Below the pieces are notes generated by a model, which searched no databases, was not told the DNA's origin, and was given only the letters and a program-made list of their open reading frames with translations. A program made the translations under genes and the position numbers. From a virus (lineage: Duplodnaviria; Heunggongvirae; Uroviricota; Caudoviricetes): DNA of 43,160 bases. The stretch covers positions 1 through 43,160 of IMG/VR virus record IMGVR_UViG_3300014682_000024; one strand, given 5' to 3'. The number at the start of each line of letters is the position of its first letter. The stretch's first letter is position 1. This document shows positions 1,207 through 36,524 of this stretch, piece after piece.

Positions 1207-4200
1207 TTACTCGATGCGCACAAACAGGCAGATACGACCGCTTGTTCCGTAAGAGTCCCTGACCCCGGATAACGCCATATAACGCCCCGGAAAAGGGTAC
1301 CCTGTTGCTCCTGCACTTGGTGTTGAACCGTAAGAGCCAGGCCCTGCAGAAGATATTGTGCACGAAAGATTAACCCCGCCCAGTTGTGACCCTGGCACCA
1401 CATCACCCAGGCCAATTTTGATTTCTTTATCCCCGGAAGTTGTTCCGCGATAAACAGCAAGCACCGGAACACCCACTGCCGGGTATTTGAAATATGAGCC
1501 TGAGCCTGCCGTTCGGGACAGCAGGAACGCCAGCGAATCGCCATCGTAAATGACAGGGCTTACTGTTGCATTCCAGTTGTTTCCACTCCAGCGGTAAGTC
1601 AGGCGATGAATACTGTGCTCACCTTCGTAATACTGGTTAAAACACAGCAGCGTTTTGAATTTGCGCGTTGTGTCTGACTCGTCGTTATCAAAGGGTGACC
1701 ACATCACATCAATGATGCCGTTAAATTTCGTTGTGCCAACCAGCAGCGTGGAAGAGTCTGCAATACTGACCGCATAACGCCCCGGCGTGGCCTCTTTCAG
1801 CCATTCAGCAAAATCGGCCTGCCCGTTAAATGTCAGGGCTTCGGTGCTGGCAAATGCCTGACCGAATCCATGCATACCGGACAGTGCCAGCCTGCCCTGT
1901 GTGCGGTCGCGGATATCACTCTGGGGTTCCATCGTCGCAGCCGCTTTCAGCTCAAGCTCCGTGCGCATGGCTTCAGGTGTGTCCAGCGCCAGTAATGCGC
2001 GGGCTTTTTCTGACAGCTGCGCCAGTAAAATCCGGCCCTCTGCACTGAAATAAGGCAGTGTGTTTTCTTCCGGTGTTATCTGGCTGACAGCCGTTAACAC
2101 GTCATTAAGCGGTTGTTTACCTGCCAGTGCTTTAGTGACGGTTGTCGCAAAGTTCGGGTCATTACCCAGCGCCGCTGCCAGTTCGTTCAGCGTGTCCAGG
2201 GCTTCCGGTGATGAGCCAACCAGCGCGGCAAGCAGTTTGCGGACAAACGCCGCATTGGCTATTTCAGTGCCTGCTGCGTCATCTGGCGGGGTTGGTGTTG
2301 TCGGTGCTCCGGTCAGTGCCGGGCTTTTCAGGGGCGCGCGTGCTTCAATCTGTGCAATGAGTGAAGCCACATCAACCTTCAGGTTTTCCCAGCCAACCAG
2401 ATACCCATGACCACCAACGTAGCGATTGTAATAAATCTGACCATTAACACCGTAATAAATTACTGCCTTATAGGCCCTGTCATCTGTTGAGCTTTTAGGT
2501 TGTGGCCAGATAATTTCAATAACGCCGTTTGTCTGAATGCCTGGTACCACCACATTTGTGTCCGCAAATACGGTATAACGACCGGGTTTTGCCGTTTTTA
2601 CCCAGCGGAGAAAATCGACCTCTGTTTTAAATTCGGTCCTGTCGCCGCTGGAAAATACTTTCCCGAATCCAAACATGCCGGGAATCGCCAGACGGCCTTC
2701 GGTGCGGTCGTAAATATTCTCCTGTGCATCCTTCTGTGCTGCATTGCCAAGTTGTAGCGTCAGATTCGTCCAGGTGACCGGGGCGGAGATATTATCGCCA
2801 CGAACGGTCATGAGAATCCGTCCGTCTTTTCCAAAAAACAGAACCAGCTTTGTTGCTGTCTGGCTTGTTTTGTCGCCCCAGCCATTATCCAGCCAGATAA
2901 TTTCTGTTATTCCGGTCGTCTCTTCCGTTTGTGTGGAAAAGGTGTAATACCGTCCCGGGTGCAGGTTGTGCGCAGTTCTGGCTACAGTCGCCATATCGCT
3001 GGCAATAATTGAACGCGCTCCGGCGTCCGTCATTCCGTAACCAAATGCACCAGGCAGCGCAACACGGCCTTCCGAGCTGTCGTAAAGGTCTGTCTGAATG
3101 TCCCTTACCGCTGCGCTTTTCAGCTCAAGCTCATTGCGCATGGTTTCCACTGTGGCCTGTGCCAGCAGTGACCGGGCTTTTTCTGACAGTGGAGACAGTG
3201 AAGCATTTCCGTCCTGATTAAAGCACAGAAGATTATCTGCCCGTTCTTCCAGATTACTGATTGCGGTTAACACGTCACTGAGTGGTTGTTTACCCGCCAG
3301 CGCGTTCATGATTGTTGTCGCAAACTCCGGGTCATTGCCCAGCGCCGCTGCCAGCTCGTTCAGTGTGTCCAGGGCTTCCGGTGACGAGTCAACCAGCGCA
3401 GCAAGCAGTTTGCGAACAAAAGCCGCATTCGCTGTTTCCAGACCGGCAGCATCGTCCGGTGGGGTTGGTGTGGTTGGCGTGCCGGTGAACGCCGGGCTGT
3501 CCAGCGGCGCTTTTGTTTTCGTTTCGTCCATGACGGCTTTGACGGCTTTTGGTGTGGCTGCCAGTTCTTCGCTGTCGTTGTCTGTATCACTACAGAGTTG
3601 CACCAGACCTTTTTCTGTCGTGGAAGCATTGCTTCCCTTCAGGTCATCAACTATCCGTTGCGCCTCGTCCCTGTGCTGTTTCGCGTTCTGCTCGCTTTTT
3701 GCTGCCGCTTCGGCGCTGGCTTTTGCCTCACCGGTCAGCGTTGCGGCATCAGCAAGTTTATCGACCGCTTTCTGGACTATCTTATCGGCATCTTTGACCG
3801 CCTGTTCTGCCCGGGCGGCATCCTGTGTGGCAGATGATGCCAGCTGTGCCACCTGCTTTTTATCTTCGGCAACGGATTCTGCATTCTGCTGTACGTTATC
3901 CGCCAGCGTCTGGCAATCCCCCTTAATCTTCTGCGCATCAGCGACATGTTGCCCGGCCTGTCGTTCGCTTTCCGCTGCCGCTTCCGCGCTCTGCTGCGCC
4001 TGCGCCACCATTTCCTCAAAGCGTTTCACTACATCCGGCTTTAAATCGCCTTCATCAAGGGCAGTCAGAAAGTCGTTCAGCGTGCCGGGCTTTGAATCGT
4101 CGTAAACCGAAATATCACCAACACAATATTCTCTTTCAATACATGACCGAAGATAAACGTCATATCTTCCGGTCTGAGCCTCAAATGCATATTCTCCTGC

Positions 4201-32921: not shown

Positions 32922-33074
32922 TTAACGTTTTTCAACTTCGTAGGCTAAATACGCTGAAAGCTCTGTGTTTCCCTGCCTGATGTGCAGCTCGCATAGCGAA
33001 CCGCGAACCATCCAGACAAATATCAGAATGGTGATGCAAACCACCACCAGACAAAACACATAGCTCCTTCGCAT
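32922..33074 (-). CDS. hok: Hok/Gef-family type I toxin (50 aa)
   Basis: Hand-translated MRRSYVFCLVVVCITILIFVWMVRGSLCELHIRQGNTELSAYLAYEVEKR; TM helix plus the conserved ..SLCE..IR.G..E.A..LAYE motif. Confidence 0.7.
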   Translation of the reverse strand: MRRSYVFCLVVVCITILIFVWMVRGSLCELHIRQGNTELSAYLAYEVEKR

Positions 33075-33343: not shown

Positions 33344-33517
33344 ATGACCGTTCATGGTATATCGGAAAACAGTACTGTTCACTTATGTGAAAAAAATGGA
33401 GAATGGCTTGTAGTGCAAATTATTAGAAACGACGACATTACATATCAACTCCGAAATACAGATACAGATGAAGAAGTAATCGTCACGCTTCAGGACATTG
33501 TCTCCCCAAATAAATAA
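33344..33517 (+). CDS. Small AT-rich plus-strand ORF (57 aa), unknown function
   Basis: Hand-translated; opposite orientation to all neighbours; followed by a hairpin. Confidence 0.3.
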   Translation: MTVHGISENSTVHLCEKNGEWLVVQIIRNDDITYQLRNTDTDEEVIVTLQDIVSPNK

Positions 33518-33525
33518 TCAAATCA

Positions 33526-33546
33526 GCGGGGCGCACGATACCCCGC
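33526..33546. terminator. Bidirectional terminator-like hairpin between convergent genes
   Basis: gcgggg-cgcacgata-ccccgc; T-rich on the minus-strand side. Confidence 0.4.
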
Positions 33547-33640
33547 ACTATTCCACTTATCACCCCCCAGCGGCAAATCGAATACACCACCAGCGCCACC
33601 GCCATTGCAATTCCTACCGTAGTGAATGCCTCAGGCCAGG

Positions 33641-34315
33641 TCATTGATTCACCTCCTGCGGTGGTTCAGGCAACGCTTCCAGTGATGCTTTCACAAACCA
33701 CGCTGCCTGAACTATAACGCCATGAATCCAGCGCAAATCAGCATCGCGATCTTTCTTTTTCATCTTTTCGCCACTTAAAGCCTGGCTTATGTGGCTGCGC
33801 ACCAAGTCTTCATGTAACTCCTTCGCATCCTCAACGGTGAAACCACCAGGCAAAAGAGTCGGAGTTACCGGAGAGTTAGTTGACGTTTCCGGGATTTCCC
33901 GAAAGTTTCCGGCATGAAGCATGGCGGCGCGGCAGGCGTTCCATGAAATTTCCTGAAGGGAACGACGAATCTGTGTGCTGCATATACTCCTCCCTGACTC
34001 CTGGCTGTTAAACCATGTTTCAAATTCCGGCACTACTGGTGCTGGTTGGGTGGTGACATTGGCAAAGGCTGCACGCAACCCGGCCTTAATTTCCTCTACC
34101 TCATCAGCACCTGGAGATGAATCTGACAGTGCATGATGGAATGCGTAAGCCATATCGTCGTTTACTGCCACCGGCTCTGCTTCCAGCGATGCCAGTGCGA
34201 TACGAAACACATCAGCAAGTAGGCTGTTTGAAGATTGGTTATCGTGCGCCGGTTCGCTCAGGAAACCAGTGATGAATGATTTAATTTCCGCGTTTTCTCT
34301 GGTAATAGTGGTCAT
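33641..34315 (-). CDS. Hypothetical phage protein (224 aa)
   Basis: ORF in the nin-like region; no family recognised. Confidence 0.5.
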   Translation of the reverse strand: MTTITRENAEIKSFITGFLSEPAHDNQSSNSLLADVFRIALASLEAEPVAVNDDMAYAFHHALSDSSPGADEVEEIKAGLRAAFANVTTQPAPVVPEFETWFNSQESGRSICSTQIRRSLQEISWNACRAAMLHAGNFREIPETSTNSPVTPTLLPGGFTVEDAKELHEDLVRSHISQALSGEKMKKKDRDADLRWIHGVIVQAAWFVKASLEALPEPPQEVNQ

Positions 34316-34521
34316 TTATTAATCCTCAAAACTTTATGCCCGGGCGCAAAAGCACGCGTTTTGTCTTTGCTTATTCGCCAGCCATCCTTGCGCGCCTCTT
34401 TTGCACAGCCAGCCCATGACGTACCAATATACTCACCAAAATCTGGCGACTGATATTTGCCATCCGTACACTGGCGGCAATCACAATAGAGATGCATGGT
34501 GTAACTTGCAGCAATACCCAT
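34312..34521 (-). CDS. Small Cys-rich hypothetical protein (69 aa)
   Basis: ORF with CDCRQC...C motif. Confidence 0.4.
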   Translation of the reverse strand: MGIAASYTMHLYCDCRQCTDGKYQSPDFGEYIGTSWAGCAKEARKDGWRISKDKTRAFAPGHKVLRINK

Positions 34522-34881
34522 TCAGCCTCCTTTGATGCCAGTGTTTACAACCAGGCAGGCCTCCTTGAGTACCCAGTCAATAGCGTCCTTCCATGCTCCG
34601 GTTTCAGCTGGCGGATTCTCACACTTTACCTGTTCATAGAAGCGCACTGCTTTAATCAATCCTTCTGGTGTCAGTGGCACAGGCGGGGCAGTGAATAACG
34701 CCTGAATTTCATAGTTCGGCCTGTCGTTGCAATCCTCTTTTGTCGGTACATATTTCCAGTCACCAAACCACGATTTACCATGAGAGTCCGTAACGCCTTT
34801 TTTCACGTAGCGATACCGCCATGCCACTGGCTTTGCCTGATCTGCAATTGCATGCACTTCCTGATAATTCATCCTGCTCAT
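34522..34881 (-). CDS. Hypothetical protein (119 aa)
   Basis: Start overlaps the stop of the upstream small acidic ORF (ATGA). Confidence 0.45.
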   Translation of the reverse strand: MSRMNYQEVHAIADQAKPVAWRYRYVKKGVTDSHGKSWFGDWKYVPTKEDCNDRPNYEIQALFTAPPVPLTPEGLIKAVRFYEQVKCENPPAETGAWKDAIDWVLKEACLVVNTGIKGG

Positions 34882-35054
34882 TCATCGCCCCACTCATCAC
34901 AATATGCTTCGACCGGAGTTTTTCCTGCTTCATAATCATCACGCCATGCTTCAGCATCAGCAGCACTTCCACTGCGTAACTCTGCATAGTCCATTAACAG
35001 TTCATGCCATTCTTCAAAACTGACGTTGTATTTAGTTGAACCAAAATCAGCCAT
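34878..35054 (-). CDS. Small acidic protein (58 aa, MADFGSTKYNVSFEEWHELL...)
   Basis: Hand-translated; strong RBS GAGGAGG; coupled to neighbours; below track cutoff. Confidence 0.4.
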   Translation of the reverse strand: MADFGSTKYNVSFEEWHELLMDYAELRSGSAADAEAWRDDYEAGKTPVEAYCDEWGDE

Positions 35055-35055
35055 T

Positions 35056-35229
35056 TTATTCTTCCTCCTCGTCTTTTATTTCGTGATATGAGTAATTGCA
35101 GTAGTTAAAGAAAATTTCTTTTGCTTCGTCCTGTATTTCATCTGGTGTCGCATCATCATCCACTTCGAATACATCCTCAAAATCTCCACCAGCTATTCCC
35201 GTTTCAATAATTATTTTGAACTTTCGCAT
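35056..35229 (-). CDS. Small highly acidic protein (57 aa, MRKFKIIIETGIAGGDFEDVFEVDDD...EEEE)
   Basis: Hand-translated; stop 1 nt before the next ATG. Confidence 0.4.
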   Translation of the reverse strand: MRKFKIIIETGIAGGDFEDVFEVDDDATPDEIQDEAKEIFFNYCNYSYHEIKDEEEE

Positions 35230-35324
35230 TTCATTACCGCCCTTTCGGGCGGCCTCCTGATGTTCTGAGGGTGCAGAAATCCCTCCGGTTAAGGATTAAA
35301 TTTTATTTACAACACTAAATTTAA

Positions 35325-35849
35325 TTATTCAGGCGCGCGAATCTGTTCCGCACAATGCAACAATGCTTCTGTCACTTCCTTAAGCGTCACGGTATCGGCA
35401 TCATCCAGTCCTGCAACTTTTGCGTGCCTGACAAACGCCGCGCGAAGCTCGTTAAACGCCACCGCCCGTACATCAGCCAGGAAAGCATCTGTAGCCGGGG
35501 TTTGCGGCATACCCCCGTCTGTTGCGCAGATATACGCATCAGATATTTCATCCTGCTCGCCATTAAACACATAGCAACTTTGTACGATAAATTTATTCAG
35601 CCGCGCATTCTCCGCCGCCAGCGCCATGCGTTCTTTCTCAAGTCGGAAAATTTCAGTCACGTATTTGGCGTTTTCACCACCCTTGATTAACTCGTTAATT
35701 CGTTTGCTTTTAATTTCCAGTTCATCCAGCAGTTCCAACACAACCTGAGGTGTGGCTTTCATACGAAATGCCAGCAATTTTTGTGGTGTGGCTGCTATTT
35801 TTATTGCTTCTGCCGCCCCACGCAGTGCCTGATAGTCAATCTTGCTCAC
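35325..35849 (-). CDS. Hypothetical protein (174 aa), possibly Ead/Ea22-like
   Basis: N-terminal IDYQALR.AAE pattern vaguely recalled from Ead/Ea22-like proteins. Confidence 0.4.
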   Translation of the reverse strand: MSKIDYQALRGAAEAIKIAATPQKLLAFRMKATPQVVLELLDELEIKSKRINELIKGGENAKYVTEIFRLEKERMALAAENARLNKFIVQSCYVFNGEQDEISDAYICATDGGMPQTPATDAFLADVRAVAFNELRAAFVRHAKVAGLDDADTVTLKEVTEALLHCAEQIRAPE

Positions 35850-36102
35850 TGGTTGTCTCCTTTTTCCATGTTTTCAGACTTTCACCACAGAACGGGCAAA
35901 ATGAGACTCGAATAGGTGATTTAGAAAATTCACCGGAACGCAACATCACCAAATCAGGGGCGCGAGTTAAATTCTCATTCCAGATTTTGTATATCAGCAG
36001 ACCTTTTCGCATCGTGTATTCAGCATCATGCTCAAGGGCTTTTGCCAGTGCCGCACATGGTTCTAACTGATTGCCATTAACCTGACATTTTGATTCGCTC
36101 AC
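35836..36102 (-). CDS. Small hypothetical protein with CxxC zinc-ribbon-like motif
   Basis: 88-aa ORF with CPFCGE. Confidence 0.4.
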   Translation of the reverse strand: MSESKCQVNGNQLEPCAALAKALEHDAEYTMRKGLLIYKIWNENLTRAPDLVMLRSGEFSKSPIRVSFCPFCGESLKTWKKETTSEQD

Positions 36103-36521
36103 AGCATCACCTCCTGAAATTTCCCCTGATAAAACGCCAGCACTCGCTGCATAACCTCACTCTTCCGGCACTCGCGACAGATTATGTTCAGGTGTCTGTC
36201 GTAGCGGCGTATTTCTCCGTCTGGTAACTTTCGAATCAGTGTCTGGTCAGTTGTTTTCTCCGGTGTCTTACGCCATTCACGATACGCCTGCTCTGATGCA
36301 AAAACACCGTATTCCCCGGACATGTATAAATCACCACAAGCCAGTACATCCACAAGGCAGCGCCGGACCGAATGCCAGCCAGCTCCCGTCGCTCTCTCCA
36401 GTTGCGACATCGTCATGCGTCCATTTTTGCGTACCAATCCGATAATTCGTGCCTTCAGCTCTTCCCGCTGTTCGAGAGAAAAAGGTTTCGCCATAAATCC
36501 TCCTGAAAAAATCACCTTCAC
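36099..36521 (-). CDS. Hypothetical protein, winged-helix-like N-terminus
   Basis: ORF directly downstream of the P-like gene. Confidence 0.4.
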   Translation of the reverse strand: MKVIFSGGFMAKPFSLEQREELKARIIGLVRKNGRMTMSQLERATGAGWHSVRRCLVDVLACGDLYMSGEYGVFASEQAYREWRKTPEKTTDQTLIRKLPDGEIRRYDRHLNIICRECRKSEVMQRVLAFYQGKFQEVML

Positions 36522-36524
36522 AAT

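Follow-up and report, generated by a model that had tools for sequence, protein, structure and literature searches.

Two short open reading frames, here termed ORF_A and ORF_B, lie side by side on the minus strand of a 43,160 nt viral DNA (Caudoviricetes; IMG/VR record IMGVR_UViG_3300014682_000024), which is referred to below as the window. The window is a Rac/lambdoid prophage of the Escherichia coli type, given in reverse orientation, and the two frames are found between its replication genes and Q, so that the term nin-like region, used in an earlier note on this DNA, is appropriate. The same note had called attention to two adjacent, very acidic frames of 57-58 aa at 34878-35229, and both the coordinates and the acidity are confirmed. 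ORF_A has 19 aspartate and glutamate residues versus 5 lysine and arginine residues (net charge -14), and ORF_B has 16 versus 4 (net charge -12); the isoelectric point (pI) of each is 4.05. The frames were also said to have been missed by the open reading frame track. They are indeed absent from it, but solely as the result of a length cut-off, and GenBank/RefSeq records annotate both, ORF_A as 'DUF7167 family protein' by the Prokaryotic Genome Annotation Pipeline (PGAP) and ORF_B as 'hypothetical protein' or 'Prophage protein'. Coordinates of these and the surrounding features are collected in Table 1.

Selection on the two frames was assessed with 80 related IMG/VR loci. These came from a locus scan based on DUF7167 that returned only near-identical E. 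coli loci (90-99% nucleotide identity to the window), and the set was used for selection and junction statistics, not for diversity. The ratio of nonsynonymous to synonymous polymorphism (pN/pS) in the proposed frame is 0.053 for ORF_A (21 alleles) and 0.093 for ORF_B (31 alleles), compared with 0.6-3.1 in the other two frames, and variable sites are mostly at third codon positions. Unrelated phages also carry homologues, at 40-60% protein identity. Selection and homology together show that both are genuine protein-coding genes, beyond chance. That the two are chance open frames without translation might be entertained on account of their shortness, 57-58 codons, but this explanation is effectively refuted by the same data: low pN/pS is confined to the proposed frame, Pfam and PHROG families exist for the products, and relatives are present in distant phages. 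The confident structural model of ORF_A and the strong, suitably spaced Shine-Dalgarno sequences, both described below, also speak against it.

The genes are common. In a protein collection the exact ORF_A and ORF_B sequences fall in clusters of 596 and 491 members, respectively. The segment with both genes is present in ∼1,743 of 5,426 complete E. coli genomes, about a third; searched singly, ORF_A is found in 1,689 and ORF_B in 1,867 of these genomes. Frameshifted or truncated E. coli DUF7167 alleles are also present in the databases (protein records P0113, P0114, P0116 and P0134). They diverge after approximately residue 33, and one of them, P0116, is found on 107 contigs. The gene is therefore decaying in some resident prophages.

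Family membership and acidity

ORF_A matches the Pfam family DUF7167 (PF23768) at 53.1 bits (E 3.4e-14; gathering cut-off 24.4 bits), with residues 2-53 aligned to model positions 1-60 of 60, and it matches phrog_1997 at E 5.2e-30. It is 100% identical to database proteins that carry the PGAP name, and its relatives carry a precomputed PF23768 match. On these matches ORF_A is a full-length member of DUF7167/phrog_1997, with no structural departure from the family.

ORF_B matches phrog_519 at E 4.8e-22, over profile positions 76-137 of 143, and the same match is found in all 38 of its aligned relatives; ORF_B accordingly belongs to phrog_519. No Pfam match is obtained for ORF_B even at E 10, and there is no NCBIfam match. 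The family is small, with only 72 representatives at 50% identity in an exhaustive profile search, and most aligned relatives are stand-alone proteins of 48-69 aa. Conserved positions in ORF_B are F13, W16, L20, W37, Y41, G44-x-TP, EA and W55, and the phrog_519 motif F-x2-W...AW-x2-DY-x-AG-x-TP-x-EA...EW is kept. A 'DUF5419' label is attached to a homologue in Morganella phage Mecenats66, but it was not reproduced with current Pfam, and the term DUF5419 was not found in the literature searched. The C-terminal half of ORF_B is also seen fused to other N-terminal modules (OQ243220.1, 3229-3303, annotated as a DUF551 protein, and protein records P0032 and P0142), which indicates either domain shuffling or mis-called starts within phrog_519.

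Extreme acidity is a property of both families and not an accident of the window alleles. Among 51 DUF7167 sequences the median net charge is -12 and every pI is below 4.4; among 38 phrog_519 sequences the median is -10, and 95% have a pI below 5. Both families are already catalogued and very common in E. coli prophages, with no function assigned. A literature search on DUF7167, DUF5419, the phrog identifiers and Ea22, nin-region and anti-defence genes returned no functional study of either family and no paper that mentions DUF7167. The only published mention found of either family is a machine-learning flag, discussed below.

Stop/start junctions and the ORF_A leader

The earlier note had described a strong GAGGAGG ribosome-binding site for one of the frames. 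This site is present and belongs to ORF_B, and it is embedded in the glutamate codons of the EEEE C-terminal tail of ORF_A. That the acidic tail exists only to encode the ORF_B Shine-Dalgarno sequence can be rejected, because DUF7167 members that have no ORF_B downstream retain the tail, and it is acidic in them too.

The two frames had further been described as chained to the neighbouring genes by overlapping stop and start codons. This is correct for the downstream side only. The TGA stop of ORF_B overlaps the start of the next gene as ATGA, and nearly all of the 80 related loci retain this junction, whether or not the downstream gene is the same. The two junctions that follow are TGAATG and ATGA. 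On the upstream side a 95 nt intergenic leader separates the Ead/Ea22 gene from ORF_A, and therefore the gene chain runs downstream only. Between the two genes themselves there is no overlap in the window: the TAA stop of ORF_A is followed by one nucleotide and the ORF_B start codon (TAA-A-ATG). The window allele is the rarer form in this respect. In 76 of the 80 loci ORF_A is longer, at 60 aa, and there is an 8 nt overlap with the start of ORF_B (ATGGCTGA), whereas the 57 aa form of the window ends at its TAA stop. The stop/start spacing kept across relatives is suited to translational coupling with the downstream genes, and such coupling is predicted.

Initiation at ORF_A may follow a different route. 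Its AGGAGG sequence is distant from the ATG, but a stable hairpin is predicted between the two, and the ATG begins 6-7 nt from the hairpin base. The leader that holds both elements is also found directly before a DUF4014 gene and before a gene for a 138 aa protein in other E. coli prophages (loci L102, 1504-1575, and L103, 1501-1575), and the ATG is 6-8 nt past the hairpin in each of these unrelated contexts. The arrangement is thus kept before three different genes, and the leader element occurs twice in phage ArgO145. Across 20 variants of the hairpin, 91% of stem cells are paired and the loop varies between GAAA and GGCA, two GNRA sequences. At one stem pair two of the 20 variants have A-U in place of G-C, a double change, but five have an A.C mismatch there; the scores do not exceed those of shuffled alignments. 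No Rfam family was found for the leader in a search over 33400-36600, and a promoter/terminator scan gave no site in it; the hairpin is not a canonical intrinsic terminator, because it has no U tract.

Split Shine-Dalgarno sites have been described for genes 38 and 25 of phage T4, where a hairpin shortens spacings of 22 and 27 nt to 5 and 11 nt, respectively (PMC3014915). The window leader is alike in that the 23 nt between the Shine-Dalgarno sequence and the AUG would be reduced to ∼7 nt by the intervening hairpin, a value within the 5-11 nt range. It differs from the T4 sites in being a portable leader that precedes several unrelated genes, and in being known here from sequence and predicted fold. 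The ORF_A leader, a putative hairpin-bridged ribosome-binding site, accordingly matches the split sites of T4 genes 38 and 25 in its geometry.

Table 1. Positions in the window of the acidic genes, their translation signals and neighbouring features.
Feature	Position	Strand	Remarks
ORF_A	35229..35056	minus	57 aa; MRKFKIIIETGIAGGDFEDVFEVDDDATPDEIQDEAKEIFFNYCNYSYHEIKDEEEE
ORF_B	35054..34878	minus	58 aa; MADFGSTKYNVSFEEWHELLMDYAELRSGSAADAEAWRDDYEAGKTPVEAYCDEWGDE
GAGGAGG Shine-Dalgarno sequence of ORF_B	35070-35064	minus	9 nt before ATG; read from sequence
ATGA overlap of ORF_B TGA stop and next gene start	34881-34878	minus	direct reading
Conserved portable leader of ORF_A	35230..35300	minus	∼70 nt; kept in nearly all 80 related loci
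AGGAGG Shine-Dalgarno sequence of ORF_A	35253..35258	minus	23 nt before ATG
7 bp hairpin with GAAA (GNRA) loop	35236..35253	minus	between Shine-Dalgarno sequence and ATG; minimum free energy and centroid folds
Ead/Ea22-like gene, upstream neighbour	35325..35849	minus	174 aa; Pfam Ead_Ea22, E 5.3e-10
phrog_660 gene, downstream neighbour	34522..34881	minus	119 aa; PHROG match; predicted to be coupled to ORF_B
phrog_926 gene, next in chain	34312..34521	minus	69 aa, Cys-rich; PHROG match
Hok/Gef toxin gene	32922-33074	minus	50 aa; Pfam HOK_GEF, E 9.6e-20; downstream of the acidic pair
P-like helicase loader gene	37190-36525	minus	
cI-like repressor gene	38780-39238	plus	

Neighbours and phylogenetic spread

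The earlier note had presented the two genes as a pair. Within E. coli this holds, as ORF_A and ORF_B are adjacent in 80 of 80 IMG/VR loci; outside E. coli each family is found alone. A Klebsiella lambdoid phage has a DUF7167 gene without ORF_B at a position after P, and a phrog_926 homologue comes next. In P22-like early-left operons such a gene lies between Dam and a homologue of the DNA polymerase III theta subunit, with Erf, SSB and Dam genes preceding; elsewhere it comes after a run of genes for GamL, an exonuclease-like protein and RecT. A Guernseyvirinae phage has it immediately ahead of the exonuclease gene, and DUF7167 without ORF_B is also present in Enterococcus Herelleviridae. Conversely, phrog_519 genes without DUF7167 immediately follow Ead/Ea22 in Enterobacter prophages, where they occupy nin-like as well as early-left positions; they also come after gpA in P2-like prophages and occur in Ackermannviridae such as Det7. 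Homologues of the two genes thus extend over lambdoid, P22-like, P2-like, Guernseyvirinae, Ackermannviridae and Enterococcus Herelleviridae phages. The neighbours change, yet the context is always an early, replication or recombination module. As the families separate outside E. coli, they are independent accessory modules and not an obligate pair.

An obligate two-component heterocomplex, whose genes must stay together, would account for the adjacency (all 80 loci and ∼1,700 genomes of E. coli) and also for the 8 nt gene overlap in 76 of the loci. Such a complex is nonetheless very improbable: each gene occurs without the other outside E. coli, both products carry a strong negative charge (-14 and -12), so that simple electrostatic pairing would be disfavoured, and the E. 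coli linkage lies inside DNA that is 90-99% identical and reflects common descent.

The minus-strand gene order of the window begins with genes for a YdaT-like protein, a DnaT-domain replication protein, the P-like helicase loader, a DUF977/Ren-like protein, phrog_4030 and the Ead/Ea22 protein, followed by ORF_A and ORF_B. It continues with phrog_660, phrog_926, a 224 aa protein, Hok/Gef, DUF968, RusA and Q. No match to PADLOC defence models was found for ORF_A, ORF_B or six neighbouring genes. The Ead/Ea22, 119 aa and 224 aa proteins share pieces of the phrog_250 and phrog_660 profiles (33641-34881 and 35325-35849, minus strand), and this points to a mosaic of modules of the Ead/Ea22 type on either side of the acidic pair. 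The phrog_926 protein has a YCDC..C motif and is probably metal-binding; in Klebsiella phage ST512-KPC3phi13.3 its homologue (3172-3384 of the locus) directly follows the DUF7167 gene, in the place of ORF_B. Another candidate frame rich in aspartate and glutamate, of 57 aa, is found on the opposite (plus) strand at 33344-33517 (MTVHGISENST...DTDEEVIVTLQDIVSPNK); it has no Pfam match.

One database record, PP818812.1, matches the window region at 97% identity over 1.4 kb and includes genes for DicA, YdaT and Hok. It is named 'Actinobacillus phage vB_Apl-pPE4', with Actinobacillus pleuropneumoniae as the labelled host. Given the match to an E. coli-type prophage region, this host label looks doubtful.

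Predicted folds and candidate functions

The AlphaFold2 model of ORF_A, based on a 51-sequence alignment, is a beta-hairpin plus helix with a predicted local distance difference test score (pLDDT) of 92.4. Strands span residues 2-8 and 17-23, and a helix at 29-43 is followed by a short C-terminal one. The long helix would be amphipathic, with D30, E31, D34, E35 and E38 along one side and I32, A36, I39 and F40 along the opposite side, and ORF_A probably needs to dimerise. ORF_B is modelled as a three-helix bundle (pLDDT 78.5). Both predicted folds are small, and neither appears enzyme-like or DNA-binding.

Small acidic phage proteins that mimic DNA include T7 Ocr (anti-restriction), T7 gp5.9 (a RecBCD inhibitor), ArdA, Arn and p56 of phi29, an inhibitor of uracil-DNA glycosylase. 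Strong negative charge is common to these proteins and to ORF_A and ORF_B. Ocr, gp5.9 and p56 are in addition of a similar size class (52-117 aa), have a very low pI and are expressed early. Gene order is also alike: in T7 the gp5.9 gene immediately precedes that for the exonuclease, and a Guernseyvirinae phage has DUF7167 at the corresponding position. There is, however, no relationship in sequence or fold to a characterised member. Comparison with known mimics, a check that the earlier note had put forward, revealed no relation: hhalign of both families against Ocr and gp5.9 gave probabilities of <1%, structural comparison of ORF_A and ORF_B gave only generic sub-domain matches, and sequence-profile searches of the PDB with both families gave only chance matches (designed repeat proteins, L23). 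Nor did sequence and profile searches reveal homology of ORF_A or ORF_B to a characterised protein of unrelated function.

ORF_A and ORF_B are genuine accessory early genes of the Rac/lambdoid prophage that move independently. They would be transcribed with the delayed-early rightward operon, as judged by gene order between the replication genes and Q, and translated as members of a closely spaced series of genes. Translation of ORF_A would begin from an AGGAGG brought to within ∼7 nt of its ATG by a stable GNRA hairpin, that of ORF_B from the GAGGAGG inside the acidic tail of ORF_A, and that of the genes that follow by means of overlapping or abutting stop and start codons. Each protein, separately, would most likely act as a stoichiometric acidic decoy or inhibitor that occupies the basic nucleic acid-binding surface of a conserved host or phage protein. 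The target could be a defence nuclease or a component of the replication or recombination machinery. This general mode, a stoichiometric acidic binder or decoy of a nucleic acid-handling protein, is proposed tentatively, at somewhat short of even likelihood, and a little under half of that falls to an anti-defence target specifically.

Several observations weigh against this proposal. Many small early proteins of phages share a high negative charge, which is no specific evidence of mimicry. Profile and structure comparison detected no similarity of either protein to a characterised inhibitor or DNA mimic, and the ORF_B model comes from a shallow alignment of 11 close sequences. Covariation in the hairpin is not significant, with no excess over shuffles in the 20 variants, and the split-site role is therefore proposed from geometry and conservation. 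Finally, the two genes are almost always adjacent in E. coli (∼1,743 genomes and all 80 IMG/VR loci), which would fit a functional partnership within this lineage. Shared recent ancestry accounts for the linkage equally well, and the linkage may be simply inherited, because the segment is 90-99% identical.

The earlier note had suggested that the proteins are DNA mimics or other anti-defence factors. One or both may be anti-restriction proteins, RecBCD inhibitors or anti-CRISPRs (Acrs) that block a host immune nuclease. The family-wide acidity, the small size and the early expression position are consistent with this, as is the placement of DUF7167 before an exonuclease gene in a Guernseyvirinae phage, which recalls that of gp5.9 before T7 gene 6. 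The presence of DUF7167 in phages of both Gram-negative and Gram-positive hosts suggests a conserved target. In addition, Kuttervirus members of phrog_519 were flagged as candidate Acrs by the machine-learning program PaCRISPR (PMC9409062). The flag is, however, a computational prediction without experimental test in that paper, and no experimental report was found in the literature searched. An Acr locus might also be expected to include a coupled helix-turn-helix gene of the Acr-associated (Aca) type, but none follows the pair in the window; the downstream phrog_660, phrog_926 and 224 aa proteins have no Pfam helix-turn-helix match, and there is no Aca link. An anti-defence role is, on the whole, unlikely. 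For the two window proteins a DNA-mimic or anti-defence function would be pure inference: the charge fits it and nothing else supports it.

The main alternative to an acidic decoy is that ORF_A and ORF_B are developmental or DNA metabolism accessory factors which tune replication, recombination or the lysis-lysogeny choice, in the manner of the lambda exo-xis proteins (Orf60a, Orf61, Orf63 and Ea22). These too are small early accessory genes that cluster with Ead/Ea22-like genes, which ORF_A and ORF_B repeatedly adjoin. In some phages the two genes occupy the equivalent early-left, exo-xis-like region, before xis/int in Stx phage ArgO145 and in Enterobacter and P22-like prophages, and their neighbours include P, gpA, Erf, RecT, SSB, exonuclease and the polymerase III theta homologue. 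Ea22 and Orf63 are reported to influence phage development (PMC10834534, PMC10869804). The families differ, however: the lambda record lists DUF1317 for Orf60a and DUF1382 for Orf63, Pfam scans of ORF_A and ORF_B return neither, and the window genes are in the rightward nin-like region. Position is also poorly discriminating, as nearly all temperate-phage accessory genes are in these operons, and positional evidence cannot separate the developmental explanation from that of an acidic decoy. Strictly virulent phages, for which no lysogeny decision arises, also carry both families, and this argues mildly against a lysogeny-specific function. A developmental role is thus a possible but less favoured explanation, and the foremost of those set against the acidic decoy.

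A broader version of the decoy proposal is that DUF7167 and/or phrog_519 represent new broad-host-range families of acidic decoy inhibitors, nucleic acid mimics that disarm a conserved defence or repair nuclease. Temperate and virulent phages of Enterobacteria and Enterococcus would share them and express them from early operons; E. coli prophages would do so by way of a portable hairpin-bridged ribosome-binding cassette. In this extended form the proposal is doubtful.

The finding in itself is routine, in that two catalogued but uncharacterised phage accessory genes were correctly recognised. The leader offers a modest example of a portable translation-initiation cassette among lambdoid mosaics, one that could be tested at little cost. 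For the proteins, importance would come only if experiment showed that one or the other family counteracts a host defence or takes over a conserved protein of the host. A demonstrated target would then annotate many phage genes at once, because DUF7167 spans E. coli prophages to Enterococcus Herelleviridae, and phrog_519 spans lambdoid and P2-like prophages to Ackermannviridae.

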